Shown here: piece by piece, positions 9,511 through 52,651 of the stretch | Numbering within the stretch: position 1 is the first letter of the stretch | Layout of the letters: each line of letters opens with the position of its first letter | DNA from: a virus | Lineage: Duplodnaviria; Caudoviricetes | IMG/VR virus record: IMGVR_UViG_2909979649_000004 | Direction: 5' to 3' (one strand) | Length of the DNA: 64,000 bases | The notes under the pieces: generated by a model | The model's database searches: none | Seen by the model: only the letters and a program-made list of their open reading frames with translations | Told to the model about the DNA's origin: nothing | Translations under genes and position numbers: made by a program

Positions 9511-9673
9511 TGTGCTACAACTGCTGTCGGAATTTATGGCGGTGGTTGAACAGGCTTTTTTAGATTTGTCTACTCATGGCCATACGCCTGCTGGGCCTAC
9601 TAATAAACTCAGCCTAATACAGCAGGCGGATAGTATTAATGAGCAGAATTCTGGTTTTAAAATAATGCTTTAA
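9511..9673 (+). pseudogene. 3' remnant of the terminal baseplate-spike gene
   Basis: VLQLLSEFMAVVEQAFLDLSTHGHTPAGPTNK identical to the C-terminus of 43047..43997. Confidence 0.88.
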
Positions 9674-10049
9674 TAAATATAAAATAAAAATGATAGCAGT
9701 TTTTGGAATAGATTAATTAACTTTTTATATTTTACTTGGCCTTGAAGTTGCTTCTGCCAAAAATTTAAACCCTATCTTATGTTTCTATAGTTATTGTGGA
9801 AGTCAATACATGGCTCTTCTTGCTGTTGTGATAAGAGTAAACCTTCAGTAATTACTAAGGAAAGGGAAGAAATTGTTTATAAGAAAATAGCTAAAACTAG
9901 TCATTAATGCTAAGCAATAGTCGCAGACGAAATTGATCTGTCTTGCAATTATAACTTATTTTAAGCTTTATTAATTACAGCTATTGATGTTTGAAAGTTT
10001 ATTCGACTATACTTAAGTTGAGGTGTTTCTGAATTTGCAAGGAGTGCAT

Positions 10050-10691
10050 ATGAAAGTAGTACGTAAGTCATTGGGATTAGATTTGGTGGGAACTTATCAA
10101 GGATTATCGCTAGGAGCATATGAAGTTACAAATCAAGATGGTCAATTGTCTTTTCATGCTGTTGTATATAACCCTCTTATTTTTGATACAAATCTAGTGC
10201 CTTTTTTTAGAATAAATTCAGCTTGTTTTAGCGCTGATATATTCGGTGATAATCGTTGTGATTGTAATTATCAGTTGCAACAAACTATGAGATTTTTTTT
10301 AGAAAATCCTGGTCTTATGATATATCATTTTAATCACGAAGGTCGAGGGGTAGGCTTTGTCAATAAAATAGAAGCATATAAACTTATGAAGAAAAAAAAT
10401 ATTGATACTTTCGATGCTCATAAATTACTAGGGTTGCCTGAAGATAGCCGGAATTACTATTATGCTGTTTTAATTCTAAATAATTTAAACATAAATCGAG
10501 TTAATCTTATTACGAATAATCCACAAAAATGTACATACTTAAAGACTCATGGGATTGATGTCTTAGAGGTAATACCTATAGTCAGTCAATGTAAAGAGCA
10601 TGAAGCATGTCTTTCGTCAAAAGTTATTCACCAAAATCACCTACATTATAAAAACTTATCACCCAAAATATCTGATCTATCTCTTAATTAA
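10050..10691 (+). CDS. GTP cyclohydrolase II-like protein (divergent RibA)
   Basis: RINSAC...DIFG..RCDC, EGRGVG..NK..AY, LITNNP.K. Confidence 0.85.
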   Translation: MKVVRKSLGLDLVGTYQGLSLGAYEVTNQDGQLSFHAVVYNPLIFDTNLVPFFRINSACFSADIFGDNRCDCNYQLQQTMRFFLENPGLMIYHFNHEGRGVGFVNKIEAYKLMKKKNIDTFDAHKLLGLPEDSRNYYYAVLILNNLNINRVNLITNNPQKCTYLKTHGIDVLEVIPIVSQCKEHEACLSSKVIHQNHLHYKNLSPKISDLSLN

Positions 10692-10788
10692 TAATATTTA
10701 TTTGTCGAGGTTGACTATGCAATAGGTTTTATCAAGTAATTTAATAACTATTGAATTAGTGTAGGAAACAGTTAGCAGAGACCAGATT

Positions 10789-11511
10789 ATGCAAAATCAT
10801 ACTCTATTACTACTTGGCGCTAATAGCTCATTAGCAGGTGCATTTTTAAAACAAAAGAAAAAAATTTCTCCTATATACATATTAGGTATAGATCAACATG
10901 AAAAGGAAAATTTTTCACAGCTATCAAATTATATGCAATTTAATTTTTCTTGTACATCAATGCAGGATGTATGGCAAAATCTTCCATTGGACTTTACCCA
11001 TGAATTAATATTTATCAGCTGTATAGGGCGGTTTGGTCATCAAGGGAGTCAGGTGCAAGGTCAATCACCGCTGTTAACAAAAGAGGTGCTGGAGCAAATT
11101 AATATCAACTTGGTGTTTGTAACATCGTTTTGCTGTGAGCTTATTAATCGATGTATTAATTATAACTGCAAATGTCGTATTGTAATTGTTGGGTCATCAG
11201 CTTCCTGGGTAGGTAGTAGAGATATTGGTTATGGTATTGCTAAGGCAGGTCTAAATGGATTGGTGATTAGTTTGTCAAAGTCATTTGCTGTTCAGGGAAT
11301 CACAGTGTTAGGAGTGAATCCAGGAATTTTTGATTCTTTAATGTCAAGAAATGTCTCAGTTGAGCGTCAACAGTGTGCTATTCAGTCAACACATATAAAA
11401 CGGGCAGGTCAGGTTGAGGAAATTGCAAAGGTAGTTAGCTATGCGGCATTTGAGGCACCTGATTATATGACAGGTGCTATTTTACCTGTTAATGGAGGGC
11501 AATATACTTAA
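10789..11511 (+). CDS. SDR-family oxidoreductase
   Basis: GANSSLA, YGIAK (YxxxK), NPG, YMTG..LPVNGG. Confidence 0.85.
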   Translation: MQNHTLLLLGANSSLAGAFLKQKKKISPIYILGIDQHEKENFSQLSNYMQFNFSCTSMQDVWQNLPLDFTHELIFISCIGRFGHQGSQVQGQSPLLTKEVLEQININLVFVTSFCCELINRCINYNCKCRIVIVGSSASWVGSRDIGYGIAKAGLNGLVISLSKSFAVQGITVLGVNPGIFDSLMSRNVSVERQQCAIQSTHIKRAGQVEEIAKVVSYAAFEAPDYMTGAILPVNGGQYT

Positions 11512-12083
11512 TGATTGATTTTTTGCTTATTCATTTGGTGATCTTCAATAAGTTGCTGAATAAGCAATTTTGGCTGTTCGTTAAAATATAGACGACTTTC
11601 ACTTGGCTTTTGAAATGCTTCAAGTAAACTTGGGAGAAATTCAGTCATACCACCACTGCCAGTAAGTACACCAATTGGTTTACCAATATCATAAGCAATT
11701 GTAAATTCATTGAGAGTTCCCCATCGACCACTTATAAAAACAGCTGCATCGCAGTGGCTTACTGCAACTACATTACGATACTTTAAGCAAACTTGATGTA
11801 TCTGTTTATGTGTAAAATCATTTGGAATATAAATGAGCTGATCATAATAACTTACAGAAGTGCCCATTATTGACTCGTGAAGCTTTTCATGCGTGACAGC
11901 AGTACATCCAATCGTTCCGCCATTATACTTTTTAGCACCTTTTATTGCTGCATAAGGTAGTCCTTGGCAGGCTCCAGTAATAAGTGTTGCACCGGCTTCT
12001 GCGATGAACTGACCAAGAAGTATTGCTTGTTGCTCTAATCCTGTAGAGATTCCTGCAGCTGAACCGAAAACTCCAATAATCAT
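11508..12083 (-). CDS. LOG/SLOG-family nucleotide-binding protein
   Basis: IGVFGS, LITGAC.G, RN, G..GTLNE motifs. Confidence 0.82.
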   Translation of the reverse strand: MIIGVFGSAAGISTGLEQQAILLGQFIAEAGATLITGACQGLPYAAIKGAKKYNGGTIGCTAVTHEKLHESIMGTSVSYYDQLIYIPNDFTHKQIHQVCLKYRNVVAVSHCDAAVFISGRWGTLNEFTIAYDIGKPIGVLTGSGGMTEFLPSLLEAFQKPSESRLYFNEQPKLLIQQLIEDHQMNKQKINH

Positions 12084-12594
12084 TTAGTGTTCCCTCACAG
12101 TTCTTGTTTTCACTATGTACTAATTAGCGTATACATTTAATTATTGTGTCACATGTATCGCTTATAATTAAACTACTGGATGCAGATTTTTGTTTCTGCT
12201 GAAAAGCATCGTATCTTTAATGTATAAAGGGCTGAAGAGCAAGAACTCTCAACTATATATATTTAACAACTTGCAGCTTTTCTAACCTTAGTATAATCGA
12301 GCTATTTCACTAACACCTACCTTTACGTATATCAGATTATTTTCTTATTAATGTCACATCACTTCCATTCACCCGAAGGCTGTGACCGTTATATAGGAGG
12401 GTACTGGAATCTAGGAGGTTGGAAAAAGCACTCATCCTCCACACCTGCGAGTTTTATGAAAATTTATTTGTGGTAATAATTAACAGCTAAGCCTTGTTGT
12501 TTAATCGTTTTAGGAATTATTTATTATTTTCACAAAGTGAAAAATTATCTCAGTTTAAGTAAAAAATACATTTTCAGTGAAAATTATTTATTTT

Positions 12595-12705
12595 AAGAAA
12601 ACAATAATTGTGTCGTATTCAATACAAGTAGCATTCTTCTGTTTTTAGGCTGTAGTGTTTAACCCTAATTTCTTGTCTTACTTTTCCAAGCAGCAGGCTT
12701 GTCAT
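12595..12705 (-). pseudogene. intI: 5' stump of integron integrase
   Basis: GGAGG RBS then MTSLLLGKVRQEIRVKHYSLKTEECYLY*IRHNYCF, matching the IntI N-terminus (LL..VR..IR..HYS..TE..Y..WIR); divergent from attI. Confidence 0.82.
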
Positions 12706-12807
12706 GATCACCTCCACACAAATATCTATTGAGATGATATGATGTTGTATGTAAGTGCCGTTTAAATAATGGCCAATTCTATGTAAATCAGTTAGTTCAG
12801 TGCATCA

Positions 12808-12919
12808 TATCAACATTATTCTAGTAATAAGTTTGTGACTTGGTTAAAATATATTTGGTTGTTATACGTCAATGCGACGTAGCATTTTGCGTCAGAGAGG
12901 CGTTCATTAAAAGTTATGT
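12808..12919 (+). other. Integron attI-like site, copy 1
   Basis: About 110 bp conserved in three copies; conservation ends at the core GTTA (GTTATGT 12913-12919). Confidence 0.8.
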
Positions 12920-13419
12920 TTCAGAATAATATGAATACAGAGTACTCAATTACAGAAGATGATTATGTGAGAGCAATGAAGCTGTTCTCAAAAATTACAA
13001 CAAAGGCTGCTGTAATATACCTAATAATAATAGGTGTAGCAGTTATAGCTGCAATTTTTGGTTCGCCAGTTATTAAAGGTAGTGCAATAGGTGGATTAGT
13101 AGGTGGTGGTAGTGTTGCGATAGTGATGAGATTTCTTATAAATCCAATTCTTTCTAGAAGGGATTATAGAAAATATAAAGCAATTCAAGAGCCGATAAAG
13201 ATTCATTTATTAAATGAAGGGGTTCAATTTTCCGCATCAGATGGGGAAGGTATTGTCAGATGGGAACAGGTGCACAAGTGGCGTCAAAATGACGATTACT
13301 TACTAATATATCCAATGCCAGGGCTATACCACATTATTCCTAAATCAATTGCTGAAAGTGGTTTTGATTTAAGTGGGCTGATTACAACATTACACGAAAA
13401 GGTAGGCAATGAAGCATAA
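12916..13419 (+). CDS. YcxB-like membrane protein (gene cassette)
   Basis: Two TM segments plus W..V.KW.Q....LLIY.....HIIPK tail; stop overlaps inverse core GCATAAC. Confidence 0.75.
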   Translation: MFQNNMNTEYSITEDDYVRAMKLFSKITTKAAVIYLIIIGVAVIAAIFGSPVIKGSAIGGLVGGGSVAIVMRFLINPILSRRDYRKYKAIQEPIKIHLLNEGVQFSASDGEGIVRWEQVHKWRQNDDYLLIYPMPGLYHIIPKSIAESGFDLSGLITTLHEKVGNEA

Positions 13420-13482
13420 CAAGGCAAATCTACATGGACGCAATACTCGCTGGTGCTTGCATTGCTCCGGTTATTTGCGGTT
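13414..13482 (+). other. attC site with damaged R' end
   Basis: GCATAAC-AAG-GCAAAT...GCAAT/ATTGC...ATTTGC-GG; inverse core nearly complementary to GTTATGT. Confidence 0.7.
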
Positions 13483-13989
13483 TTGACCATATTTAATAAT
13501 TTTCAAGTTTTGCAGGTAGTCCACAAGTTCATGAATATATGTTGTGGGATTGTCAGTAGAGAGTCTGGATGCATCTTTTAAAAATTGAGCCGCATTTTTT
13601 TGCATCTTCAATGTCAGGGAGCAACGTAGAAAATATTTTTTTTGTGCCCCTGATTAAAAACGCTGATAGTTTAAAAATTATGATAACTTTTAGTTTTTTA
13701 TTTATTTGGTGTTTATAAATGAATTATTGCAGGTTTTGATAAGTATGCTGTCATGCTGGAGACGTAGGTGTATTCAAAATAGGGCTATCTTTATTGAGAT
13801 GTGGTAACCTGATGCCTGGCTATGTTCATTAGCAATGCTTGTCTTGATATGAGTTAGCGAATGGAGTGTGTTCGCTGGCAATTCTTACCTCAGAGCAATT
13901 CAATCGCATTCTTTAATTGTTCCATGAACTTGTCAACCCTTGTTCTCTATCAAGTAATTTGTGTGGTTGGTTGCTGGTAGAGTGATTCC

Positions 13990-14101
13990 TATCAGCATTA
14001 TTCTAGTAATAAGTTTGTTGCTTGGCTAAAATGTATTCGATTGTTATACGTCAATGCGACATAGTACTTTGCGTCAGAGTGACGTTCATTAATAGTTAAG
14101 T
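13990..14101 (+). other. Integron attI-like site, copy 2
   Basis: Same 110 bp block, core GTTAAGT 14095-14101. Confidence 0.8.
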
Positions 14102-14107
14102 CAATCT

Positions 14108-14500
14108 ATGAATAATTCTGATTGGGTTAAATTTTTCACAGCCTGTAATGAAGTATTGGGCCAAGGAAGTTGTTCGTCGTTGCATAGTGAGAATTGGTGT
14201 GCATGGACCACTTTTGGAAAGCTCCAAGAAGACTGCCTTTACTGGCGGTCTGGGCTACCAAATAATGATGAGTTAACTGATACGTATGTAAAGGATGGGG
14301 GCACATGGGGGCAGCCGTTCTTGTATAGCGAAATAGCCCATATTATTGTACCTTCACGATTTTACTGGGAGCGCCCTCCAGGCAAAGGATGGGAGTGTGG
14401 ACATAGAGAGCAAAATATCGCTGGGCTTTCACAAGCGTTGCAGCGTCTTGAAGTGCAACACCGAATTACAGATATTATATTAGAAATTAAACTCTACTAG
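14108..14500 (+). CDS. Hypothetical protein (gene cassette)
   Basis: Bounded by GTTAAGT and its exact complement ACTTAAC (14512-14518). Confidence 0.78.
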   Translation: MNNSDWVKFFTACNEVLGQGSCSSLHSENWCAWTTFGKLQEDCLYWRSGLPNNDELTDTYVKDGGTWGQPFLYSEIAHIIVPSRFYWERPPGKGWECGHREQNIAGLSQALQRLEVQHRITDIILEIKLY

Positions 14501-14511
14501 TTGGCTCATGT

Positions 14512-14549
14512 ACTTAACAAGTTGCTATCCTTTTATGGCGGCGTTATGA
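14512..14549 (+). other. attC site, internally deleted (38 bp)
   Basis: ACTTAAC...GGCGGC-GTTATGA. Confidence 0.7.
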
Positions 14550-14553
14550 GTAA

Positions 14554-14883
14554 ATGATGAATGAAATAGAGGTAATTCGGCGACTCTTCGATTTCAACTG
14601 GCCTTCAGACGATGAGCTTGTAGAGTTTGCAGAAAAGAAAACTGGTTACGGAGGCGACGATGGTTACTATGGAGTTTTGTATCCAGGTGATCTAGACGAC
14701 TACGATAAGGAAGTTGATGGTTACCACATCCCAGATGGAATGATCGAGGTAGCATATTGGAATGGAGACGATGATGTTATTCAAGTCCCAGAAGAATTGT
14801 ACCTGCAAGAATTGTTAATCTACTTAAAAACAAATGAAAAACATGAGCTTTCAAGTCGTATTGGTAAGCTCTTAACAGGGTAA
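14554..14883 (+). CDS. Acidic hypothetical protein, possibly CdiI-like immunity protein (gene cassette)
   Basis: Bounded by GTTATGAG and CTCTTAAC; acidic 109 aa; family call tentative. Confidence 0.65.
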   Translation: MMNEIEVIRRLFDFNWPSDDELVEFAEKKTGYGGDDGYYGVLYPGDLDDYDKEVDGYHIPDGMIEVAYWNGDDDVIQVPEELYLQELLIYLKTNEKHELSSRIGKLLTG

Positions 14884-14930
14884 GGTATTGGGCTACGCTG
14901 ACACTGGCCCAATGCTTAATGCTATTAAGT
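14870..14930 (+). other. attC site (61 bp) with R' mutated from GTT to ATT
   Basis: TCTTAAC-AGGG-TAAGGTATTGGGC...GCCCAATGCTTA-ATGCT-ATTAAGT; hairpin with one extrahelical G. Confidence 0.72.
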
Positions 14931-15032
14931 CAGATGCTGCAATCAAAGGCTAACCTACAAGGTCGTGATATGAAAGTTAATCAGGCTCAACCAAAATCTA
15001 ACAGCCGTCCACAACGTAGACCAAGGTATTAA
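14929..15032 (+). pseudogene. 3' remnant of RRM RNA-binding protein gene
   Basis: DAAIKG..NLQGRDMKVNQAQPKSNSRPQRRPRY*, matches 51581..51856 with a small deletion. Confidence 0.88.
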
Positions 15033-15164
15033 TACCTAGTCATGCAAATCGCTGGAAGTAGAAGGCTATAATCTTTTTGCTTCTGGCAAGTCCAGTTTTT
15101 TATATCTCATCACCATATATAACTCATCTTTTAATCAGACTAGTTATTAAGCAATAGCATTTCT

Positions 15165-15391
15165 CGTGTGAATTTCGTGTGAATTTGGTACCCACTTTTA
15201 GACAAAACCTCACCCTGTAAGGTTTTCAGGTAATGTTCTAAGTGGTTGATTTTAAAGGGTTTTAAGGAAATTCAAGGTGAGTGGAAGTGGTGGAGGCGGC
15301 GGGAATTGAATGTTCGTATAAGGCATTTAACTAATTGATTTTAAAGATAAAATTTCCAAAAATGGACTGCGTGCGAATTGAGTGCGAAAAA
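15165..15391. promoter_or_regulatory. att arms: arm-type direct repeats and IHF sites
   Basis: TCGTGTGAATT x2 on the left, GTGCGAA x2 on the right; TAAGTGGTTGATT and TAACTAATTGATT match the IHF consensus; about 110 bp shared with 52018-52125. Confidence 0.7.
15288..15310 (-). repeat. att core = 3' end of tmRNA (ssrA) gene
   Basis: Minus strand TTCAATTCCCGCCGCCTCCACCA; repeated at 52103-52125. Confidence 0.88.
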
Positions 15392-15721
15392 TATTACAAG
15401 AATAAAAACTTTTTATTGCATGACTTAATCTCTTCTTTCCCTATATGTGTTTGTATGGCATCCGTGATCAATCTTCAACCACCTTTGTGAAATCTGTCTC
15501 AGATTAAAGCTTGATCAGATCAAGTTTTGCTCTGTATGTGAATTTGATCACGCTTAAAGATCTTTAAGTGATTAATATCTGACCACTTTTAATTATGCGC
15601 GTTGAGTTTAAGGATAGTCTGCATGGCAAAGAAGAGTCTTAAGTATTTTTTAGGGGTCTAGATATTTCCGTACAGTTCTATTCTGGACCGCTTGCTACTT
15701 GGAGTTAAATGAAGGATAAGT

Positions 15722-16312: not shown

Positions 16313-17467
16313 CTACCACTCATAATTAGGCTTGTATTTATTATCGTCTCCAGCCTCTTCAATAAACATTCCATAATGCCTGTTAATCATCTCAATGCCT
16401 TGGTGGCCCATTTGGCTTGCTATCCAGAATAGGTTTTCATTTCTTGCTATAAGAAGGCATGCGTAGGTATGCCTAGTTTGGTACGGGTTCCGATAGCGTA
16501 GGCCACTTTTTTTTATCGCAGGAATCCAAGCACATTTTCTAATTTGCTGATCATTTTTCCAGGCTTGGTTTGTTCGTGGATTATGAAACACAAAATCGTT
16601 GTTGTTCGTATAGTTAAACTGAGATTCTAGGGCTGATATAGCAGAAGGGAAGAGATGTATTAATCTTTCACCCTTGGTACCTGTTTTGGTGCCTTTGAGT
16701 AGACCTTCTACTTTAGCCTGGTCAATCAAAACAGACTTGCCTTTTAAGTTAACTTTATCCCAAGTAAGTCCTATGAGTTCACTAGTTCTAACCCCTGTAT
16801 AAAAAGCAAACTGAAAAGCATTTTTTACCTGTCCCTCCATGCTTTCCAGTAGCTGTTGTATTTCTGCAGGTTTAAAAGGGTCGACTTTAAAATTACTGAC
16901 TCTAGCATCTTTATGAATGAAATCATCAAGAGATATTGCATCCATTGGTGACCTGGGAATAATAGCGTCTACAACAGCCAGCCGAAGTGCCTTAACTAAG
17001 GGGATAAGGTGGTTGGCAATGGTTTTACGCTTACAATTTTTCGATTTAACCCATTCACGAATATGTTTCGGTGTAAGCTCTGTAACGAGAATTTCTCCAA
17101 ACTCTGGAAGTAGCTGACCTTCAATAGACCGTTTATAGCGCAGAGCTGTTGAAGGCTCTACAGTCCTGTGAAGGTCATTGATATATTCTTTTAGTAACTC
17201 TGCAACTGTAGTATTTACTCGAGTACATTCACCAAATACTTTACACCGTGGGGATTCTGGAAAGTAATCACTGTATTTAAATATGTGACGTTCTATTTTC
17301 CCAATAATTTCTGCTCTAAGCGCTTCAGCATAACGTAAATTTGCTCTAGTTGGCTTTAGCTTTAGGGTTTCTCTACATTCAACCCCTCTATACATGAAAG
17401 CAATCAGAATAGACTCTGATTGCTTATGTTTTCTTATCCTTATTCCTCTAGGAAGCGATGAGGTCAT
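16313..17467 (-). CDS. int: Tyrosine integrase
   Basis: TGVRTSEL, YQTRHT, MGH, HY; close paralog of 8305..9486. Confidence 0.92.
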   Translation of the reverse strand: MTSSLPRGIRIRKHKQSESILIAFMYRGVECRETLKLKPTRANLRYAEALRAEIIGKIERHIFKYSDYFPESPRCKVFGECTRVNTTVAELLKEYINDLHRTVEPSTALRYKRSIEGQLLPEFGEILVTELTPKHIREWVKSKNCKRKTIANHLIPLVKALRLAVVDAIIPRSPMDAISLDDFIHKDARVSNFKVDPFKPAEIQQLLESMEGQVKNAFQFAFYTGVRTSELIGLTWDKVNLKGKSVLIDQAKVEGLLKGTKTGTKGERLIHLFPSAISALESQFNYTNNNDFVFHNPRTNQAWKNDQQIRKCAWIPAIKKSGLRYRNPYQTRHTYACLLIARNENLFWIASQMGHQGIEMINRHYGMFIEEAGDDNKYKPNYEW

Positions 17468-21510: not shown

Positions 21511-22425
21511 ATGGATGATGTTTATGATAACTGCAATGGCTATGTACGACTCAATAACCAGTTATTGGAAGCTATTTGTCAGCTGGATATTTCTGGCCGC
21601 CAGTTTCGTATTTTGATGGCGGTGATTAGAAAAACAATTGGCTATAACATCGAGGTTGACTGGATTTCTGCCAGCCAATTAGCTGATTTAATGGCTTATG
21701 ATGGTGCCACCACCCACCTACATGCCGATTTACGAATACTCAAAGAGCGCAAAATCGTAATCACCAGAGGTCGTAAAATTGGCATCAATAAAAGTTTGGC
21801 TAACTGGTGTTTTAGCAAAATCGAAACTAACCAAAAACCGTCACTAAACAAACCGAAATCGGTCACTCATAAAGAAACCAAAAACGGTCAGGTTAGTGAC
21901 CGAAATCCGTCAGTAAACAAACCGAATTCCGTCACTCCCAAACAAACCGAAAACGGTCAGTGTAGTGACCGAAATCGGTCAGAAAAAGTGACTGAAAACG
22001 GTCACCACAAAAGACAAAAAGACACTAAACCAAAAAACACTATTACCCCCTTTAATCCCCCCTTGGAGGAAACCAACCCACAACCGAGTAAAAAATCCAA
22101 ACGTCGTACACCAGCCAAACGAACCACCACTGCCCCTGAACATTTTCCGATGACACCGGAATTAATTCGGTGGGCCAGTGAGAATTTTATTCGGGTCGAT
22201 TTGATTATCGAAACTGAAAAATTTCTGGATCACCACCGGGCCAAAGGTTCCACGTTCACTTGCTGGGCGTCAGCCTGGCGAAACTGGATGCGTAATGCCC
22301 AACGCTTTGCGGCTGAAAAAGCCATGCCACCCGTTCCAACGACCGGCCCTGTTAAACCCAATGGAATCAAACCTGGGGGGATGGATTGGGATGATACCAG
22401 CTGGCGCCATGACTTAGGTCTGTGA
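21511..22425 (+). CDS. Lambda O-like replication initiator
   Basis: GYVRLNNQLLEA...RQFRIL.AVIRKT.GY...DWIS..QLA; internal iterons; GGAG RBS before ATG 21511. Confidence 0.85.
   Translation: MDDVYDNCNGYVRLNNQLLEAICQLDISGRQFRILMAVIRKTIGYNIEVDWISASQLADLMAYDGATTHLHADLRILKERKIVITRGRKIGINKSLANWCFSKIETNQKPSLNKPKSVTHKETKNGQVSDRNPSVNKPNSVTPKQTENGQCSDRNRSEKVTENGHHKRQKDTKPKNTITPFNPPLEETNPQPSKKSKRRTPAKRTTTAPEHFPMTPELIRWASENFIRVDLIIETEKFLDHHRAKGSTFTCWASAWRNWMRNAQRFAAEKAMPPVPTTGPVKPNGIKPGGMDWDDTSWRHDLGL
21829..22005 (+). repeat. Replication origin iterons (8 copies, consensus ACCGAAAWCGGTCA)
   Basis: Eight imperfect repeats counted within the O-like gene. Confidence 0.85.
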
Positions 22426-42428: not shown

Positions 42429-43053
42429 TATCCGCTTAGCCTTAAATACCCCTGGTCGTGCCACCTTTGTGGTACGGCCTAAAGTCCCATTAACAGCAAA
42501 AACCGTAGTAAAAATAGCCATGGGTTATGGTGATAATTTACAGCAGGTATTTGTAGGCTATATCGAAAAAATCACCCCAGTGGATAAACACCAACAGCAA
42601 TTATTCTGCAGGGAATTAACCGGGATTTTGCATTACCCGTTACCCATGAGTTTACGGCATGTGCATTTAAATGAGGTATTAAACCAAATCGCCCAGCAAA
42701 CCCGACTGACGTTTATTACTCCTGAACAAGCCTACTGCACTACTAAAATCCCTTATTTTTACAGCCTGAATAATGGGCTGTTTGCCATGAGTTCAATCGC
42801 GCAGGCATTTGCTATTGATGATTATTGTTGGCAGCAACAAGGGAATGGACAGGTGTATGTGGGGAGTTGGCAGCACAGTTATTGGCAGGATAAACCGATA
42901 AAAATCCCTGAACAATTTTTTATTAACCATCAATCCCATAACAGTGCGCAAATTGCAGCAATACCCCAAATACGCCCTGGGGTGTTATTAGACGATGGCA
43001 GCCGGATAAAACAAACCCAAATTAATAACAATCAAATGGTCATATCATGGTAG
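42370..43053 (+). CDS. Baseplate hub protein (gpD-like)
   Basis: PGRA.F, FCREL, WQQQG.G.VYVGSW..S.W. Confidence 0.72.
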   Translation: MKLNSQLMINQQIIPLVRHDIRLALNTPGRATFVVRPKVPLTAKTVVKIAMGYGDNLQQVFVGYIEKITPVDKHQQQLFCRELTGILHYPLPMSLRHVHLNEVLNQIAQQTRLTFITPEQAYCTTKIPYFYSLNNGLFAMSSIAQAFAIDDYCWQQQGNGQVYVGSWQHSYWQDKPIKIPEQFFINHQSHNSAQIAAIPQIRPGVLLDDGSRIKQTQINNNQMVISW

Positions 43054-43997
43054 AAGCCATTAAACGCATTGTATTAAGTTTATTTCCAGAACTGGCGGGT
43101 AATTATCATTTACCCCGCTTTGGTCGGGTGGTGGCCATCAGTGATTTACCCAAACAAGGGAGTCTCTGTGATGAGTTTAGGCCTCACTATGCGGTGGATA
43201 TTGAGGTATTAAACGCACAAGGCAAGCCGGATAAAAAATTACCGATATTATCGAGTGTAACCGTACCCATGGCACTAGCAGGCCAGGAAAAAGGCTTTTA
43301 TGGCTTACCGGAAGTGGGTACTTGGGTGGTGGTCGGGTTTGCATATGGTCTGCCTAATAAGCCATTCATACAACAGTTATTACCGAATGGCTTATCACTC
43401 CCCAACCTTGAGCAAAAAGAGCAGCGTTGGCAGCCTAATCCGTCAAGCTACCAACGTTGCGATCACAAGGGCGCCTGGGAACGAACCTCAGACAGTAGTA
43501 TCAGGGATGAGAGCTTAAGTTATCAGCTGGAAACCCTACACCAGGAAACCACAGCCCAAACCAGCCAAACGACAGTTACCGAGCACAGCACTGAAACGAT
43601 TGGCGGCACCAAAGCCATTGAGGCAATGGGAGCTCTTAAACTCCATTCCGGTGGTACAGCTGAATTAGCCGCTATTGATAATTTAAAGGTAGCTACAGGC
43701 AATGATAGTCATACTGTCGTAGGTAACGATATGCAAGAGCATATCAACGGGATTAAACACAGCCTGGCCAAACTGAAGCAAATCGCCCAAGTCAAAGACG
43801 GAGGCAAAGTCTGGTTGGGGAATGAAAGTGACAATGTGTTGCAACTGCTGTCGGAATTTATGGCGGTGGTTGAGCAAGCGTTTTTAGACTTATCCACCCA
43901 TGGCCATACGCCTGCTGGACCAACTAATAAACATAGCCTGATACAGCAGGCGGGTACAGTTAATCAGCAGAATACTCATCTTAAAACAATGCTTTAA
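43047..43997 (+). CDS. Baseplate spike protein (gpV-like)
   Basis: PEVGT.V.VGFAYG.P..PFI; C-terminal HGH metal motif. Confidence 0.75.
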   Translation: MVEAIKRIVLSLFPELAGNYHLPRFGRVVAISDLPKQGSLCDEFRPHYAVDIEVLNAQGKPDKKLPILSSVTVPMALAGQEKGFYGLPEVGTWVVVGFAYGLPNKPFIQQLLPNGLSLPNLEQKEQRWQPNPSSYQRCDHKGAWERTSDSSIRDESLSYQLETLHQETTAQTSQTTVTEHSTETIGGTKAIEAMGALKLHSGGTAELAAIDNLKVATGNDSHTVVGNDMQEHINGIKHSLAKLKQIAQVKDGGKVWLGNESDNVLQLLSEFMAVVEQAFLDLSTHGHTPAGPTNKHSLIQQAGTVNQQNTHLKTML

Positions 43998-44279
43998 GAG
44001 AAATAATAATCTAGTAGTCTAACAATAGAGTCTTTTCACCTTGACTTATGCTGTATCTCTAAGAAAGAGCCTGTATATCAAAGCAGACAGGCATCACCTG
44101 TTGCCTTGAGTAGTGAAAGAAGCACTAGTAATGAAAAATACAAACGATAGGCATGTGACCTAGAACTTGCTACAGGAGCAAACTTTATCTGTAGCAAAGC
44201 CCTAGGAGACTGATTTGTAAAGGGTGTACTGGTTAGCTTTTATACAAAAAGTTAACCAGTTTTTAGAGTAATGAGCTGG

Positions 44280-45195: not shown

Positions 45196-45660
45196 ATGAC
45201 TACACTAGATTTATCTCCCTTATATCGTAGCAGCATAGGGTTTGATCAATTAGCATCAGTATTTGACACAGCTTTTCGCAGTGAGCAAACTGGTTACCCC
45301 CCTTATAATATCGAAACAATTGATGAAAACCACTATGGTATAACACTAGCTGTAGCTGGCTTCGAAGAGCGTGAGTTAAGCATTCAGGTAGAGCAAGGAG
45401 TGCTCACTGTTAGTGGCAAAAAAAATAAAAATAATGAATCTAAAAAGTTCCTTTATCAAGGAATTGCTACTCGTTCATTTGAACGAAAATTTAATTTAGC
45501 TGACCATGTTGAAGTGACTGATGCCAGTCTAAGTAATGGGTTACTTAGCATTAGTTTGGTTAGAGAAGTGCCTGAGGCAATGAAACCAAAAACTATCCCT
45601 ATTAGTCAGGGGAACCATAACGTTCTAGAGCATAAAAAAAAGGAGGGAAAAGTAGCCTAA
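45196..45660 (+). CDS. ibpA: Small heat-shock protein IbpA
   Basis: DLSPLYRSSIGFD, YPPYNIE, LYQGIA.RSFERKF.LA, NGLL. Confidence 0.92.
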   Translation: MTTLDLSPLYRSSIGFDQLASVFDTAFRSEQTGYPPYNIETIDENHYGITLAVAGFEERELSIQVEQGVLTVSGKKNKNNESKKFLYQGIATRSFERKFNLADHVEVTDASLSNGLLSISLVREVPEAMKPKTIPISQGNHNVLEHKKKEGKVA

Positions 45661-45839
45661 GTAAAAAGCCATAATAATCTTAAGCGTCTAGCGTCTTCTT
45701 TTAAGGAGGTAAAATATTAACACATAAAAGGTGGGTGATTACTCGCCCACCTAGCTATGATGGATAAGTGTAATGATTTCTCTTTAATAGTATTTCAAAT
45801 CTTGCATTGTAAGCACTACTTAAAACTCATCATTAGTTT

Positions 45840-46460
45840 TTGAATAATCGTGATTTTAAGGAGGTGATACTAGTGTTCGACTTAAAAAACTATAAATTCT
45901 TATACTTAATTATTAGTTTGTGCATCACTATCATTGGCGTATTAGCCTTTACTACATGGAGATTGTCCTCAGAGCTTAAAACTGTGGAAGGTAATACCCC
46001 TATAGCGTCAAGTGACATAATTAAACCGCTTCCAGCACCTTGGCCTAAAGATATAGATCCATGGTTAGATAGCTGGGACCCATCTGGTAATTTTTCAGCA
46101 CTGCAAAAGCGTATGGATGAAATGATGCAAGTGATGTTACCAGATATGTCCTTCTTTAATATGCAGGGCTTTGGTTACTCTAGCTCTAATCCTAAGATCA
46201 GAATGGATGAAACAGATACTGAATATAGGGTCACTGTATCAGTTCCAGAAGCCCAGAATATTGAAGTTAACACAGAGCTAAAGAACAATATATTAACTAT
46301 CAATGGTAAAGTAAAACAACAGGAAAGCAGTCAGCAAAGTAAGCTTTTTTATACAAGTCAGTTTTCTCAGTCTGTTACTTTACTTGAACCAGTAGATAGC
46401 ACAAATATGAGGGTTGACAATAAAAATCATAAAGTGGTTATTACGATTCAAAAAACATAA
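45840..46460 (+). CDS. Hsp20-family protein with N-terminal TM anchor
   Basis: Hydrophobic N-terminus plus alpha-crystallin-like C-terminus; true start may be GTG 45873. Confidence 0.75.
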   Translation: MNNRDFKEVILVFDLKNYKFLYLIISLCITIIGVLAFTTWRLSSELKTVEGNTPIASSDIIKPLPAPWPKDIDPWLDSWDPSGNFSALQKRMDEMMQVMLPDMSFFNMQGFGYSSSNPKIRMDETDTEYRVTVSVPEAQNIEVNTELKNNILTINGKVKQQESSQQSKLFYTSQFSQSVTLLEPVDSTNMRVDNKNHKVVITIQKT

Positions 46461-46600
46461 AACTATTTCAGCAAAATAAACTGTAAAAATATGACAGTTT
46501 TAAAGTATAAGTATTTACCTATAAGGAGGATAAAAAATCTGATATTTAATAGTATGCCTTGGCTTTAATAGATTTAACAATTGTCAAAGGAGACCATGTC

Positions 46601-47146
46601 ATGAATGTAAAAGACTTAATCCCTTGGAACTGGCTAAAAAATGAAGAAGAGAGGGAAAATAAACAGTTAAAAGCAAGTAATATCTATGATCCAACGGCAA
46701 ATCCATTGGTACAATTTCATAGAGAAGTTGACCGACTATTTGACAACATGTTCAAAGGAGTTGGCTTTCCTGGCTTCTCAGAAGGATAGTCAAAGCTACC
46801 AAATAGTTTGTTTAAACCTAGCGTAGATATTAGCGCAAAGGATATAGAATATCTAATTAGCGTGGAGGTACCTGGTGTTGAAGAAAAAGATATTAAACTT
46901 GAAATAAAGGATCATACACTCGTTATTAGTGGTGAAAAGAAACAAGAAAAGGAAGACAAAGAGGAGCATCATTACCGAGTTGAGCGCAGCTATGGCTGTT
47001 TTCAAAGGGTTTTAGCGATTCCAGAAGATGCAAGCACTGAAGAAATTAATGCATCATTTAAGAATGGTGTTTTATCCATTACATTACCTAGAAGAGAATT
47101 ACCAAATAGAAAGGCTAAACAAATAGAAATTAAGAAAGCTAGTTAA
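46601..47146 (+). pseudogene. Hsp20-family gene interrupted by an in-frame TAG (46787-46789)
   Basis: ORFs 46559..46789 and 46808..47146 are in frame; LIPWNW N-terminus plus PSVDI...ERSYG.F.R...NGVL. Confidence 0.85.
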
Positions 47147-47689
47147 AAGTATTTGGGTCATGCTTGTTGCAGTTCAATTGCATTCACTTGCAACAAGACA
47201 CGACCCGATGTGTATTATTAACAGGCTTCCAAGGCCCTCTATGCTTGTCGTCAGTCCAAGCACAGCAGATAATGTATGTTATCAAGATGGGGCTTGTTCT
47301 CAGTATTGTCTTACAGTTTGTTATCTGTATTTAGTAACTCATTGCTTTTCTTTCTTTAATATTACCCCACTACTTCATTAACACCTACCTTTACTTATGT
47401 CAGATTATTTTCTTATTTGTGTCAGAGACTGGTTATCATCACTTCCATTCTGCAGGCGCCTGGGAGTGTGCCGGCAGAGCCACCAGAATCCAAAAGGCTG
47501 GAAAAAAGCACTCATCCTCCCCACCTGCGGGTTTTGCGTCATAAAAGTTTTGTGTAATTGAAGTTATGGCAATGCTTAGTAGCTAAGCTTTATTGTATAA
47601 GGTCTTTAAGAGTTAATTGTTGTTTTCTCAAAATGAAAAATTATCTTAGTTTAAGCAAAAAAATACATTTTCAGTGCAAATTATTTATG

Positions 47690-47800
47690 TTAAGAAAACA
47701 AAAGTATTGTCGTATTCAATATAGGTAGCATTTTTAGTTTTAGGCTGTAGTGTCTAACCCTAATTTCTTTTCTTACTTTCTCAAGTAATGGACATGCCAT
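47690..47800 (-). pseudogene. intI: 5' stump of integron integrase, second copy
   Basis: GAGG RBS; MACPLLEKVRKEIRVRHYSLK, 2 bp deletion, then CYLY*IRQYFCFLN; same TGA as copy 1. Confidence 0.82.
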
Positions 47801-47844
47801 AATCACCTCTACATACATCACATAGCTATTAAGGTGAAATGATG

Positions 47845-47860
47845 CTGTATATAAATACAG
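47845..47860. promoter_or_regulatory. LexA box at intI promoter
   Basis: CTGTATATAAATACAG, 45 bp upstream of the intI start, as typical for integrons. Confidence 0.85.
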
Positions 47861-47934
47861 CGTTAATGGATGAACGTCAAAGTATTATTTGATTTACAAA
47901 CAATTATATGTGAATCAGTTAGTTGGGTGAGTCC

Positions 47935-48046
47935 TATCAACATTATTCTAGTAATAAGTTTGTGCCTTGGTTAAAATATACTCGATTGTTATACGTCAAT
48001 GCGACGTAGTACTTTGCGTCAGAGTGACGCTCATTAATAGTTAGTA
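47935..48046 (+). other. Integron attI-like site, copy 3
   Basis: Same 110 bp block; core GTTAGTA 48040-48046. Confidence 0.8.
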
Positions 48047-48431: not shown

Positions 48432-48492
48432 AGCTAACAAGCGCGTTAATTAGAGCGCTCGAAGGGTTGCGTCTATTACGCGGGCGTTATGT
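48432..48492 (+). other. attC site (61 bp), apparently intact
   Basis: AGCTAAC-AAG-CGCGTTAAT...ATTACGCG-GGC-GTTATGT with extrahelical T. Confidence 0.82.
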
Positions 48493-48548
48493 TTAGTTGA
48501 GCTTCATTGTTCTAAGTCCACTTCCTACAAAAAATCAGAGTATAAATT

Positions 48549-49421
48549 ATGGACAATATTGTGCGAGAGGTCCTGAAAACAAAAATTATGGGGCTCAAAG
48601 CGACAGCCTTCCAAGATGCATTGGATAGAATTTATCTTAGCATTTACGGTGAGGGAAACTTCCAGAGAGTAAAGCAGAAGCACGATGGTGGTTCGGATGG
48701 AATCATAAATGGTGAAACGGTTTTGGCAGTGTATGCTCCAGAAAAATATATCTTGAATGATTTTAAGAGGAAGGTTAGAGCAGATTTTGAGTCTTACACG
48801 AAAAACTGGGAAGCTACACACAGCAAGTGGGAGGTTGTAACCAATTTGGAATCGACCGCACAAATGATACAGTTTGTGAACATGCTTAAGAATGGTGCAT
48901 CTCTTATATGTATTGATGGTTTGTTGCAGAAAATTGGTAAGCAGACGTGGACGGTGAAAACGGCGATTTTTAGAGCGCTAGATATCCCTGACCATTACTT
49001 ATCTAACGATGTGATCTCAACAGTAATTGAAGACTTAATTCAAATAAGCACCCAAGATGATCCTTTTGAGCCCTATGAAAAACCAGCCTATATACAAGAT
49101 AAAATCGAACTAAATGTTAGTGAGGAACACGTGGCTACGTTTATGGATGAGTATGAAGACTCGCTGGCCATTTTTCCTATAGTATCGACGGTCGTCAAGT
49201 CAAAATCGAACGCTGATGTTGCTGCTATAAGAAACAAAGTAAGGTCCACTTATACATCCTTGTCTGGGAAATTTGAAAAGCGGCTTGATGAGCTTGTAAA
49301 GATTATGTGTCAAAGTAAGTCAATAGATGATTACTATAGTCATAATATGCGCATCGTAATGGTATATTTTTTTGAACAGTGTCTGTTTGGTAAAAAGCCA
49401 AAATCAGAGGTTAATAGATGA
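48549..49421 (+). CDS. lmuA: Lamassu/ABC-3C effector (restriction-like nuclease N-terminus + C-terminal domain)
   Basis: FQ...DGGSDG...VYAPE, K...DF; KIELN and YFFEQC.F C-terminal motifs; operon context. Confidence 0.7.
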   Translation: MDNIVREVLKTKIMGLKATAFQDALDRIYLSIYGEGNFQRVKQKHDGGSDGIINGETVLAVYAPEKYILNDFKRKVRADFESYTKNWEATHSKWEVVTNLESTAQMIQFVNMLKNGASLICIDGLLQKIGKQTWTVKTAIFRALDIPDHYLSNDVISTVIEDLIQISTQDDPFEPYEKPAYIQDKIELNVSEEHVATFMDEYEDSLAIFPIVSTVVKSKSNADVAAIRNKVRSTYTSLSGKFEKRLDELVKIMCQSKSIDDYYSHNMRIVMVYFFEQCLFGKKPKSEVNR

Positions 49422-49651
49422 TTAATGCGCATGTCGAAATGGATTTAAATCAGCATGTTTCAGTTGTTTCCGCAAAAATTATTGATTTGGTTGAAGCTGG
49501 AAACGAAGTGATTTTAGAAACTTTAATGAGGAAGTTTCTAAAAAAATATGAGTTCTATACCCCTGATCAGTTTATGGAAGGGCTGACCTTCTTGTTCTCT
49601 ATAGATTGTTTGAATGTTCAGGACTACAGGGTGATATTAAAAAATGTTTAA
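49418..49651 (+). CDS. lmuC: Lamassu/ABC-3C middle component
   Basis: 77 aa, F...L.FLFSI..L; between effector and ATPase. Confidence 0.68.
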   Translation: MINAHVEMDLNQHVSVVSAKIIDLVEAGNEVILETLMRKFLKKYEFYTPDQFMEGLTFLFSIDCLNVQDYRVILKNV

Positions 49652-51404
49652 GCTCATTGCATTGTCTTCGCCATCAGGTCTTTTTAAAGATATTGTATTT
49701 AGGGATGGTCTGAACATAATTCTCGGAAGGTATTCAAGATCGGGAAAAGATATCAATGGAATTGGAAAAACTACAATAATTAACCTTATCGATTACTGTC
49801 TTTTAGCGGATGGTGTCAAGTCTGAGCTATTTAAAGAAAAGTATGATTTTCTGAGGCATGAACGTATTCGGCTCGACTTCATGCTTGGTGGTAAGAAATA
49901 TTCAATTGAACGAGGCTTTGAGGATAAGAAAAAGGTATTTTTCACAACAAATGGAGAGGATGCTAAGGAGTTCATTGATAGTGATCTTAGATTGATACTA
50001 GGCTCAGAAATGGGGAAGGGGCAGGCTGGTATATATGAACCAATTTGGTTTAGGACGCTGATGTCGTTTTTTGTACAGAATGACCATAATTTTTTGCAAA
50101 GAGATGCAACGAATGTTCTGAAATTTACTATTGGTAAGCGCCAACCTGAGCTTTTCACCTATATTTTTTTAATTTTAGGCATTGATAATAGTCTTATATG
50201 GGATTTTGACAATAGCAGTGTTGAATTGAAGAGATTGCGAGCAGATCAAACGCGCATTAATAAACAAATAGTAGAGCAAACAGGAAAATCAATAGAGGAC
50301 TTTAGAGGCGAGTGTGACTCTGTTGCAAGGAAAATTGATAAGCTAGAAGAGGGATTGGATAACTATCAATTCGATGATAATAGCGCCGCCCTCGAAGATA
50401 AGCTGCAAGCACTCAGTGAACAAATATCAGGTTTAAATAAAAAGTATATATATCTAGTAAGCAAGCACAGAGATATTCAAGAGAGCCTCCAGATTGATGT
50501 CGATGTAGACCCTGATGAGGTTTCTGGATTTTACTCGGAAATTCATTCTGAGTTTTCTAGCTTTATAAGAAAGAGTCTCAATGAAGTTATTGAGTTTAGG
50601 AAGGAAATAGCTACAAATAGACGAAAATTTCTTAAGGAACGCGAGGCTCAATACCAAGGGCAATTGAGCGAGATAAAGAATAAACTAATTTCACTTGAAG
50701 CAGAGCGATCTAGGATTTTTAAAATGCTAGATGAAAAATCCGCATTTGATGCACTAAAGTCTGCTTATACTAATCTAATCGAGGAGAAAGCTCACCTTTC
50801 TAGTCAGTTTTCTTATATTGAGCAATTGGATCATATAGAAGAATCAATTGCCAGCAAGAAATCATTGGTTAGCTCTACAGTTGCAAAACTTGTGGCGAAG
50901 AAGAATGAAAACATACAAACGGTAGATGAAATAAAAAGTATATTTCTAGATTTGGTAGAAGGTTCGGTAGATATTGATAGTTCAGATGTAAGTCCGTATT
51001 TCAATATTGAATTCAAATCAATTCAAAACAGTCCAATCAAGCTATCGCTAGAAGTACCTAGAGGTAGTTCTTTAGGTAAGGGGCGATTCAAAATATTAGC
51101 TTTTGATCTCACTGTATTTATCACTTCTGTTTTAAGAAAGACCGAATTCCCAAGCTTTTTAATTCATGATGGTGTTTTCCATGCGATAGCACACAAAACA
51201 CGAATTAAATTTCTTAATTACATCAACAGTAAACTCGGTGAATTGGGTGGCGCTCAATATATTATTACTGTAAACGAGGATGAAATCATATTTCCTGAAA
51301 GTGAAGGCGTTTCAATAGATTTGGACTTTAAATTGGAAGATAAAACATTAATAACTCTTGAAGACAATCCTGATCATATGTTTTTAGGCAAAGAGTTTGG
51401 ATGA
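49644..51404 (+). CDS. lmuB: SMC-like ABC ATPase (DUF2326), Lamassu LmuB
   Basis: GLNIILG, NGIGKTT Walker A, coiled coil, S.GK...KILAFDL, FLIHDG, QYIITVN. Confidence 0.8.
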   Translation: MFKLIALSSPSGLFKDIVFRDGLNIILGRYSRSGKDINGIGKTTIINLIDYCLLADGVKSELFKEKYDFLRHERIRLDFMLGGKKYSIERGFEDKKKVFFTTNGEDAKEFIDSDLRLILGSEMGKGQAGIYEPIWFRTLMSFFVQNDHNFLQRDATNVLKFTIGKRQPELFTYIFLILGIDNSLIWDFDNSSVELKRLRADQTRINKQIVEQTGKSIEDFRGECDSVARKIDKLEEGLDNYQFDDNSAALEDKLQALSEQISGLNKKYIYLVSKHRDIQESLQIDVDVDPDEVSGFYSEIHSEFSSFIRKSLNEVIEFRKEIATNRRKFLKEREAQYQGQLSEIKNKLISLEAERSRIFKMLDEKSAFDALKSAYTNLIEEKAHLSSQFSYIEQLDHIEESIASKKSLVSSTVAKLVAKKNENIQTVDEIKSIFLDLVEGSVDIDSSDVSPYFNIEFKSIQNSPIKLSLEVPRGSSLGKGRFKILAFDLTVFITSVLRKTEFPSFLIHDGVFHAIAHKTRIKFLNYINSKLGELGGAQYIITVNEDEIIFPESEGVSIDLDFKLEDKTLITLEDNPDHMFLGKEFG

Positions 51405-51580
51405 AATTGAGGCGACAACTATTCTGACATAAGGGGCTGGCATTTCTTACCTCAAAGCAATTCAATCGCATTCTTTAGTTGTTAGGTAAACCTGTTCAAG
51501 ACTTTCTCTATCAAGCAATTTGTGTGATTGGTTGCTGGTAGAGTGATTCCTATCAACACACATTATATAGAGAAGCATTC

Positions 51581-51856
51581 ATGAAAATGTACGTTGGCAA
51601 CCTGTCATATAATGTCACAGCTGAAGATTTAAAAGAAACCTTTTCCACTTATGGTGCCGTAGCAGATGTAACGCTGATTACTGACCGGGATTCTGGTCAG
51701 TCTAAAGGCTTTGGCTTTGTTGAAATGGAGAATAACTCTGAAGCGGATGCGGCGATCAAAGGACTAAATGGTAGTAACCTACAAGGTCGAGATATGAAAG
51801 TGAATCAAGCTCAGCCAAAATCTAACAGTCGTCCACAACGTAGACCAAGGTATTAA
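51581..51856 (+). CDS. RRM RNA-binding protein
   Basis: RNP2 MYVGNL, RNP1 KGFGFVEM. Confidence 0.93.
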   Translation: MKMYVGNLSYNVTAEDLKETFSTYGAVADVTLITDRDSGQSKGFGFVEMENNSEADAAIKGLNGSNLQGRDMKVNQAQPKSNSRPQRRPRY

Positions 51857-52375: not shown

Positions 52376-52651
52376 CTAATACCTAGGTCTACGCTGTGGG
52401 CGGCTGTTAGATTTTGGTTGAGCCTGATTCACTTTCATATCCCGGCCTTGCAAGTTACTACCATTCAGGCCTTTGATTGCGGCGTCCGCTTCCGAGTTAT
52501 TCTCCATTTCCACAAAGCCAAAGCCTTTAGACTGGCCAGAATCCCGGTCAGTAATCAGCGTTACATCTGCTACGGTACCATAAACTGAAAAGGTTTCTTT
52601 TAAATCTTCGGCTGTGACATTGTATGACAGGTTGCCAACGTACATTTTCAT
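52376..52651 (-). CDS. RRM RNA-binding protein
   Basis: 89/91 aa identical to 51581..51856. Confidence 0.93.
   Translation of the reverse strand: MKMYVGNLSYNVTAEDLKETFSVYGTVADVTLITDRDSGQSKGFGFVEMENNSEADAAIKGLNGSNLQGRDMKVNQAQPKSNSRPQRRPRY

Follow-up and report, generated by a model that had tools for sequence, protein, structure and literature searches.

The 64,000-nucleotide stretch analysed here, referred to as the window (C1:1311604-1375603), carries the IMG/VR record IMGVR_UViG_2909979649_000004 and lies in a 100% complete, 6.69-Mb genome of the Zooshikellaceae, which was compared with five relatives to give six family genomes. Positions 12595-14930 of the window hold Element 1 (E1), in which the remnant of an integron integrase gene (intI), two copies of a recombination site (attI) and three gene cassettes with attC sites at their ends are found. 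A second copy of this platform, Element 2 (E2), has its attI at 47901-48043. E1 is very likely a fossil integron that a P2-like prophage remnant at ssrA, the transfer-messenger RNA (tmRNA) gene, carries in its right (cargo) arm. The features that carry this reading are as follows.

12613-12705, minus strand: intI stump (delta-intI), with the first 28 codons intact (MTSLLLGKVRQEIRVKHYSLKTEECYLY), then TGA in place of Trp, and homology gone after about codon 31.
12774-12916, plus strand: attI-1, a 143-nt module whose core palindrome plus TCATTAAAAGTTA lies at about 12890-12916, with the crossover at G12913|T12914; collinear with the intI-attI region of the relative G005.
12914-13476, plus strand: cassette 1, YcxB-like, with an open reading frame (ORF) at 12916-13419 (likely true start 12931) and a weak attC at 13414-13476/13486.
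13982-14098, plus strand: attI-2, an orphan copy without an intI stump, with the crossover at G14095|T14096; aligned with the intI-adjacent attI of G005.
14096-14549, plus strand: cassette 2, a 130-aa gene (orf130), with the ORF at 14108-14500 and a truncated 38-nt attC at 14512-14549.
14544-14930, plus strand: cassette 3, a 109-aa acidic gene (orf109), with the ORF at 14554-14883 and an attC-like hairpin at 14870-14930 (3' core ATTAAGT).

The attI copies of E1 and E2 belong to one 143-nt repeat family (12774-12916, 13956-14098 and 47901-48043), in which attI-2 is 92% identical to the E2 attI and 86% identical to attI-1. The last 27-56 nt of the module, which hold the palindrome ACGTCAgagTGACGT followed by TCATTAATAGTTA, recur elsewhere in the host genome. 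In an alignment of 12 copies, drawn from four genomes, the module's final four columns, GTTA, were invariant and no column beyond them was conserved; at every module copy in the host genome an unrelated gene begins within about 30 nt past GTTA. In a public scan, the attI core motif was matched only in Zooshikella species. In one of the five relatives, G005 (Zooshikellaceae), a gene at C18:44570-45511 encodes a true integron integrase, with a TIGR02249 score of 481 bits where the cut-off is 265; the attI module lies 257 nt upstream of this intI on the opposite strand (divergent) and is followed by cassettes. Judged by its sequence, this arrangement is the canonical integron layout, and because the module of G005 adjoins, divergently, a true intI, these results indicate that the module is a real attI. 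A preliminary description of E1 had called the repeat attI, and this was borne out by its homology to the G005 site beside intI and by the stump beside attI-1.

The E1 stump is 77% identical to residues 1-31 of the G005 IntI (tblastn) and 81% identical over 95 nt to the 5' end of the G005 gene (blastn). A second stump, frameshifted after about residue 20, lies in E2 at 47680-47800; a LexA box, CTGTATATAAATACAG, is present at 47845-47860 between that stump and attI, and is mutated in E1. No intact intI or IntI was found anywhere in the complete host genome, where the best TIGR02249 match reached 75.6 bits against the cut-off of 265. Compared with a complete integron, E1 has an attI beside intI and cassettes joined at G|TT, as judged by homology to the G005 module and by the end of that homology at GTTA, and has only 28-31 codons in the place of an intact intI. 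The flank beyond the stump (12254-12612) is common to E1 and E2, which indicates that the truncation of intI is older than their divergence. Since both elements have the same truncation, the later differences between their cassettes would have needed IntI in trans or ordinary recombination. This flank and its E2 counterpart (47322-47680) form a conserved non-coding stretch of about 360 nt, without intI homology, a part of which is found again following another prophage's gpD gene (C1:967647-967828); it has no Rfam match. Searches of Rfam gave nothing at gathering thresholds on the whole window, nor at E<=1 on 12050-15400.

When a cassette is inserted through attI x attC recombination, its first bases are the final six of its own R' box, and the complementary R'' box lies close to its other end. 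All three E1 cassettes start with TTAnnn and have a matching inverse core at the end. In cassette 1 the entry core G|TTATGT (12913-12919) is paired with GCATAAC at 13414, which overlaps the stop codon (6/7 complementary). In cassette 2, G|TTAAGT (14095-14101) and ACTTAAC (14512) are exact complements over 7/7 bases, as had been claimed. Matching cores had been claimed for cassette 3 as well; the inverse core of G|TTATGAG (14543) is present as CTCTTAAC at 14869-14876, with one mismatch (7/8). Genome-wide, for 5 of 11 module copies the exact reverse complement of the 7-mer lies no more than about 15 nt from the stop codon of the first ORF (binomial P ~4e-11), and each of the five complements is followed by an imperfect palindrome of 48-110 nt that ends in GGCGTTA.

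A covariance model (R1) was built from 19 attC sites of the family, all of them outside the window. In these sites the R box (TAAC/GTTA) is invariant, the spacer is unpaired and 3 nt long, and the L-box stem contains a bulge; compensatory changes occur in 8 of the 12 base pairs of their alignment. On the whole window, R1 matched best at 48432-48492 (29.8 bits, E=3e-5), where the first E2 cassette ends, and next best at 14512-14549, which separates cassettes 2 and 3 (16.9 bits, E=0.06). When R1 was run on 12900-15100, the three best plus-strand matches were the three predicted cassette ends, at ranks 1-3, with regional values of E=0.002 for 14512-14549, 9.6 bits and E=0.16 for 13414-13486, and 5.9 bits and E=1.4 for 14870-14930. 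Training sites score 40-52 bits and intact sites overall 30-52 bits; at 16.9, 9.6 and 5.9 bits, the E1 attC sites are therefore decayed. One of the family's intact sites lies at C1:1401235-1401330. None of the three is intact, and one has been reduced to 38 nt. Two loose scans of the genome for attC, which combined a regular expression with folding, were dropped as unspecific, one of them giving 82 matches against 66 in a reversed-sequence control.

The intact attC of E2 is followed by a three-gene ABC-3C-type unit (48486-51404; 290, 77 and 586 aa), which starts at a GTTATGT core and has no recognisable attC at its end. The ABC ATPase of this unit (586 aa) gave matches to DUF2326 and to a candidate defence protein, PDC-M68B (E=5e-57), and its 290-aa protein gave a weak ABC-3C CTD10 match. 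An attC candidate after this unit (51427-51487, ACATAAG...GTTAGGT) was rejected, as it showed no fold (z=+0.6) and no R1 match.

The protein of cassette 1 matches PF14317 (40.1 bits against a gathering cut-off of 23.3, E=3.1e-10), a domain present in all 92 listed proteins of the YcxB set, comprising the window protein and 91 relatives from diverse phyla. For YcxB homologs with 61-64% identity, an R1 attC match adjoins the gene in all four contexts sampled (L054-L057). Matches of 29-52 bits lie on both sides of the gene in L056 and L057 and also in nearly every other intergenic gap of these arrays; a 44-bit match lies immediately upstream of the gene in L055; and in L054 a 30-bit match covers the 3' end of the gene, with just 13 bits upstream. 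As in cassette 1 of the window, the downstream attC in L054, L056 and L057 begins a few bases before the stop codon. The YcxB homologs elsewhere are true attC cassettes, and because attC sites were found around them in unrelated arrays, R1 works outside the Zooshikellaceae family.

About 50 relatives of equal length were found for orf130, a family with the conserved motifs SWCAWTTF, GGTWGQPF and LEIKLY. No Pfam match was obtained for orf130; in the Atlas it lies beside clusters in which 24-86% of members carry DUF6678 (PF20383; score 0.95, TM 0.97), without Pfam confirmation, DUF6678 being absent from hmmscan at E<=10. Its AlphaFold model (AF2) has a pLDDT of 96.8 and showed no PDB neighbour above noise with Foldseek and a wide VIA-align search (best Z 5.3). 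For orf109 a single homolog was found, on a 528-nt contig in which R1 finds no attC. The Atlas gave a lead from orf109 to CdiI_4 immunity proteins (0.88, 193 shared features, TM 0.69), and hmmscan gave no match to CdiI_4 (PF18624) at E<=10; only as a hypothesis, drawn from this lead, might orf109 confer immunity to a polymorphic toxin. Searches with PADLOC and PHROGs returned nothing for the three cassette proteins. A search for sequencing runs covering the region returned none. The expression of the cassettes and the roles of their products are something that we infer.

Several observations weigh against reading E1 as an integron. The attC scores are weak, with just one site (14512-14549) below E<0.1 on the whole window. 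The attC of cassette 1 folds no better than shuffled sequence (z=-0.6), that of cassette 2 is without a hairpin, with just R''+AAG and GGC+R' left on either side of 18 nt, and the 3' core of cassette 3 is ATTAAGT instead of GTT.... Four sampled homologs of orf130 are core-chromosomal, with an APH-like kinase gene and leuA, and have no attC by R1, which found no attC in L018 either. A consensus scan found no convincing plus-strand promoter in 12600-12916. Finally, each of the six family genomes has 6-24 occurrences of the attI core (GTGACGTTCATTARTAGTTA, <=1 mismatch), against 0 for a reversed-pattern control, and about half of these copies have no attC nearby, which suggests that the module may have a further role.

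Low attC scores, and two of three candidate sites that fold no better than shuffled sequence, are what would be seen if the core and inverse-core matches were due to chance and the repeat were a conserved regulatory region spread by homologous recombination, with no integron involved. This explanation is extremely improbable and is already contradicted by the results, since the module adjoins a bona fide intI in G005 and an intI stump in E1, the covarying family attC model matches the predicted places, the inverse cores recur far beyond chance, and YcxB is a cassette elsewhere. The three cassettes of the preliminary description were upheld by their matching cores, the R1 ranks within the region and the attC-flanked homologs of YcxB. 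The checks that it proposed, a search for homologs in attC arrays and folding of the attC bottom strands, were favourable in part: homologs beside an attC were found for YcxB in 4/4 contexts, and among the sampled orf130 homologs and the sole orf109 homolog none had attC; the bottom strand folds end to end in cassette 3 (z=-2.5), and the sites of cassettes 1 and 2 do not share this. The same description had said that the cassettes would be refuted if their homologs were never cassette-associated and the attC model gave no signal; both the YcxB cassettes and the R1 ranks showed otherwise.

The fossil integron of E1 lies between the two ends of a prophage arm, and the remaining features of this arm are as follows.

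9511-9682, plus strand: 3' end of a gpD-like tail/baseplate gene, 84% identical to 43835-44006 (the end of a 316-aa gene); left limit of the prophage-arm remnant.
13477-13873, no strand assigned: non-coding spacer, for which neither the genome nor the relatives gave a homolog.
13874-13997, plus strand: pre-RRM segment, 87% identical to E2 51436-51558, which lies upstream of an RRM gene; its last 16 nt (13982-13997) overlap the start of attI-2.
14949-15034, plus strand: 3' remnant of an RRM gene (residues 65-91), detected by tblastn with the intact E2 gene 51581-51856 (repeat D11, 94%).
15166-15310, minus strand: att copy (3' end of ssrA), which closes the E1 prophage remnant and opens the next prophage; one of five att copies, the series of which ends at the true tmRNA gene.

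The true ssrA gene is located at C1:1406954-1407324 on the minus strand, and partial copies of its 3' end are found at C1:1254245, 1275813, 1326769 (window 15166), 1363595 (window 51992) and 1406898. The repetition of these partial copies indicates that several elements are stacked at ssrA; bounded by the five copies, C1:1254245-1407324 is a tandem stack of about 150 kb of prophages and remnants at the tmRNA gene. The P2-like prophage at 15310-52125 encodes an integrase (16313-17467), replication protein O, a terminase and a tail module, and its last late gene (43047-43997, 316 aa) matches baseplate proteins of P2-like phages. E1 opens at 9511 with what corresponds to the last 53 codons of this gpD-like gene, which argues that E1 is a sister prophage's right arm, the left part having been lost or replaced. 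With the gpD-like remnant on one side and the att copy on the other, E1 occupies the cargo-arm position of a P2-like (Peduoviridae) prophage. A search of deposited phages with 12254-15310 (blastn) gave no match.

This position is shared by other copies of the module. At least 6 of the 8 chromosomal attI copies in the host genome lie downstream of gpD in P2-like prophages, and those at C1:1400417, 85093, 2681267 and 4610594 directly follow gpD genes (PF05954) or syntenic tail modules. In G005, intI is convergent with a homolog of the window gpD-like gene, 83 nt away and with 81% amino-acid identity. Because these other attI copies and the G005 intI also adjoin gpD genes or tail modules, the integron platform is recurrent in the cargo arm of these phages. 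The gpD-like gene next to the intact intI of G005 (L032:1092-2042, or G005:C18:45594-46541) is broken into two ORFs of 143 and 123 aa. At that locus no more than two phage tail genes can be recognised, so that of the two partners it is the phage that is degraded, and the integron is intact.

The platform is common to E1 and E2 (73% identity between 12254-12916 and 47322-48043), and so are the pre-RRM segment and the att arm; no cassette is, in agreement with the preliminary description. The independent captures proposed there are supported, with the caveat that attI-2 and cassettes 2 and 3 probably came as a block. In the stronger form of this caveat, the block was imported ready-made by phage-phage recombination and only attI-1 records capture in E1, an account that we favour slightly. 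It fits the closer relationship of attI-2 to the E2 attI than to attI-1, a left junction at which 16 nt overlap with pre-RRM sequence (13982-13997), a right junction that falls inside RRM coding sequence and has no GTT core, and a truncation of intI that predates the split of E1 and E2. From these junctions, the block probably arrived via the 16-nt microhomology and replaced the 5' two-thirds of the RRM gene. What does not fit so well is that the attI x attC signature of cassette 2 at attI-2 is still perfect (7/7), which argues that the capture at this attI copy was IntI-mediated wherever it took place; in addition, a search for a donor element carrying cassettes 2 and 3 found none. The spacer to the left may be a decayed cassette; blastn and tblastx of 13420-13873 gave self matches only.

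A different function for the module must be weighed as well. Copies of the attI core are often co-oriented in tandem at a spacing of 0.5-3 kb, for example at G005:C15:27895-29914 and on the host's own plasmid (C2:59644-68532); in the arrays of plasmid C2 and L009, small co-oriented ORFs lie between the modules and there is almost no attC. Only the last ~27 nt, including the palindrome, are common to all module subfamilies. Together with the 6-24 copies per genome, this could mean that the module is mainly the site of separate attI-bounded units (attI x attI) or a mobile promoter or operator, and that its use as an integron attI is secondary. We regard this as unlikely, given that one module copy stands in the canonical place beside intI, that attC cassettes with matching inverse cores are inserted precisely at G|TTA in at least 12 copies, and that no promoter consensus was found. 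No tyrosine recombinase gene adjoins the extra attI copies.

The history that best accounts for E1 as a fossil integron can be outlined from these comparisons. The ancestral order, intact in the relative, would have been the gpD tail gene, a convergent intI, a divergent attI, a cassette array and the phage att site. As a tyrosine recombinase, IntI would have joined the folded bottom strand of the attC of a circular cassette with the double-stranded attI at G|TT; such IntI-mediated insertion explains why the cassettes start with TTAnnn from their own R' box and end in an attC with the complementary R''. The gene intI would then have been reduced to a stump of 28-31 codons and the E1 attC sites would have decayed. 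With only a stump of intI and no other IntI in the genome, the three cassettes can no longer move. The second attI most likely came in together with its two cassettes, as a single block from the integron arm of another phage, joined on the left through the microhomology and on the right inside the RRM gene, at codon ~65. A broader scheme, offered tentatively and rated as possible though not probable, is that P2-like phages of the Zooshikellaceae use the integron attI, with or without intI, as a standard cargo-loading point downstream of gpD, at which any IntI in the cell swaps cassettes, including defence systems, in resident prophages and plasmids. Units bounded by attI might in that scheme also move by attI x attI, which would explain both the 6-24 module copies per genome and the tandem arrays that lack attC.

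Other genes and repeats were observed in and around the two elements. Between the gpD remnant and the intI stump, 10023-12083 holds a cargo trio of GTP cyclohydrolase II-like, short-chain dehydrogenase and SLOG (LDcluster4) genes, which may be a nucleotide-modifying or defence module; the equivalent cargo position of E2 (45196-47146) holds three consecutive HSP20/alpha-crystallin genes. Two nearly identical 91-aa RRM RNA-binding genes, at 51581-51856 (plus strand) and 52376-52651 (minus strand), face each other across the att site, and more copies of the RRM gene are found at other att junctions of the ssrA array (C1:1254641, 1204383). Inside the replication protein O gene, 21830-21967 consists of two 69-nt direct repeats of shorter ACCGAAA-CGGTCA-type units, which are probably origin iterons. 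At 63445-64000 a minus-strand ORF contains a 15-nt periodic repeat, the pattern expected of a pentapeptide-repeat protein.

Integrons are usually described as chromosomal or as borne by plasmids and transposons, and phage-borne cases are recent and few. In P2-like phages, cargo and defence hotspots with variable accessory genes at a fixed position, in prophages that are collinear elsewhere, have reportedly been described by Rousset et al. in 2022. The cargo of E2 resembles that of such hotspots in including a candidate defence system, the ABC-3C/PDC-M68B unit. Unlike those hotspots, the locus described here has a dedicated recombination site (attI) and cassettes bounded by attC, which points to IntI-mediated exchange and not to homologous exchange alone. 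This suggests a testable route by which temperate phages could acquire and shuffle accessory and anti-phage genes via IntI in trans.

Clusters of attC sites lacking an integron integrase (CALINs) and delta-intI remnants of chromosomal integrons are said to have been treated as IntegronFinder categories by Cury et al. in 2016. Like these remnants, E1 is a cassette array without a functional integrase nearby and is read as a degraded integron. It differs from a CALIN in that attI copies and an intI stump can still be recognised, neither of which the definition of a CALIN requires. The IntegronFinder definition of a CALIN is a cluster of attC sites that lacks an integron integrase (PMC9024848). 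Against the working criterion of at least two attC sites above threshold and no intI nearby, E1 has no intI nearby, and only 14512-14549 comes near significance on the whole window with the family model. E1 probably falls below standard attC thresholds (<=16.9 bits even with the family model), and fossil arrays of this kind will be missed by standard pipelines, since these depend on intI or strong attC.

Integrons and CALINs in prophages have already been published (Qi et al. 2023); what is unusual here is the many orphan attI copies at a phage cargo hotspot. In that study, a screen of 10,705 phage genomes found three complete integrons, one In0 and 17 CALINs (PMC9892861). In the literature library searched, no paper links Zooshikella and integrons. 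Temperate phages of Vibrio anguillarum carry fragments of the host chromosomal integron, with intI and cassettes (PMC9892861), and their IntI is 48.6% identical to that of G005. These phages took part of the host super-integron by imprecise excision, whereas the locus described here is a conserved phage locus found in several prophages and two genera. A close parallel is the Shewanella prophage vB_SspM_M16-3 (Peduoviridae), which carries a complete integron along with a CALIN, both of them headed by an attI of their own (PMC9892861), and has an IntI 46% identical to that of G005. As in vB_SspM_M16-3, the present case combines a P2-like prophage, a second, integrase-less array that starts with an attI copy, and an integron at the end of the phage genome. 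The two differ in that here intI is a stump, no IntI is found genome-wide, the attC sites have decayed, the attI is unrelated in sequence, and the arrangement recurs downstream of gpD in several prophages. Within the Zooshikellaceae, the decay stages span from the intact intI of a relative to the stumps of about 30 codons and the orphan attI sites found here.

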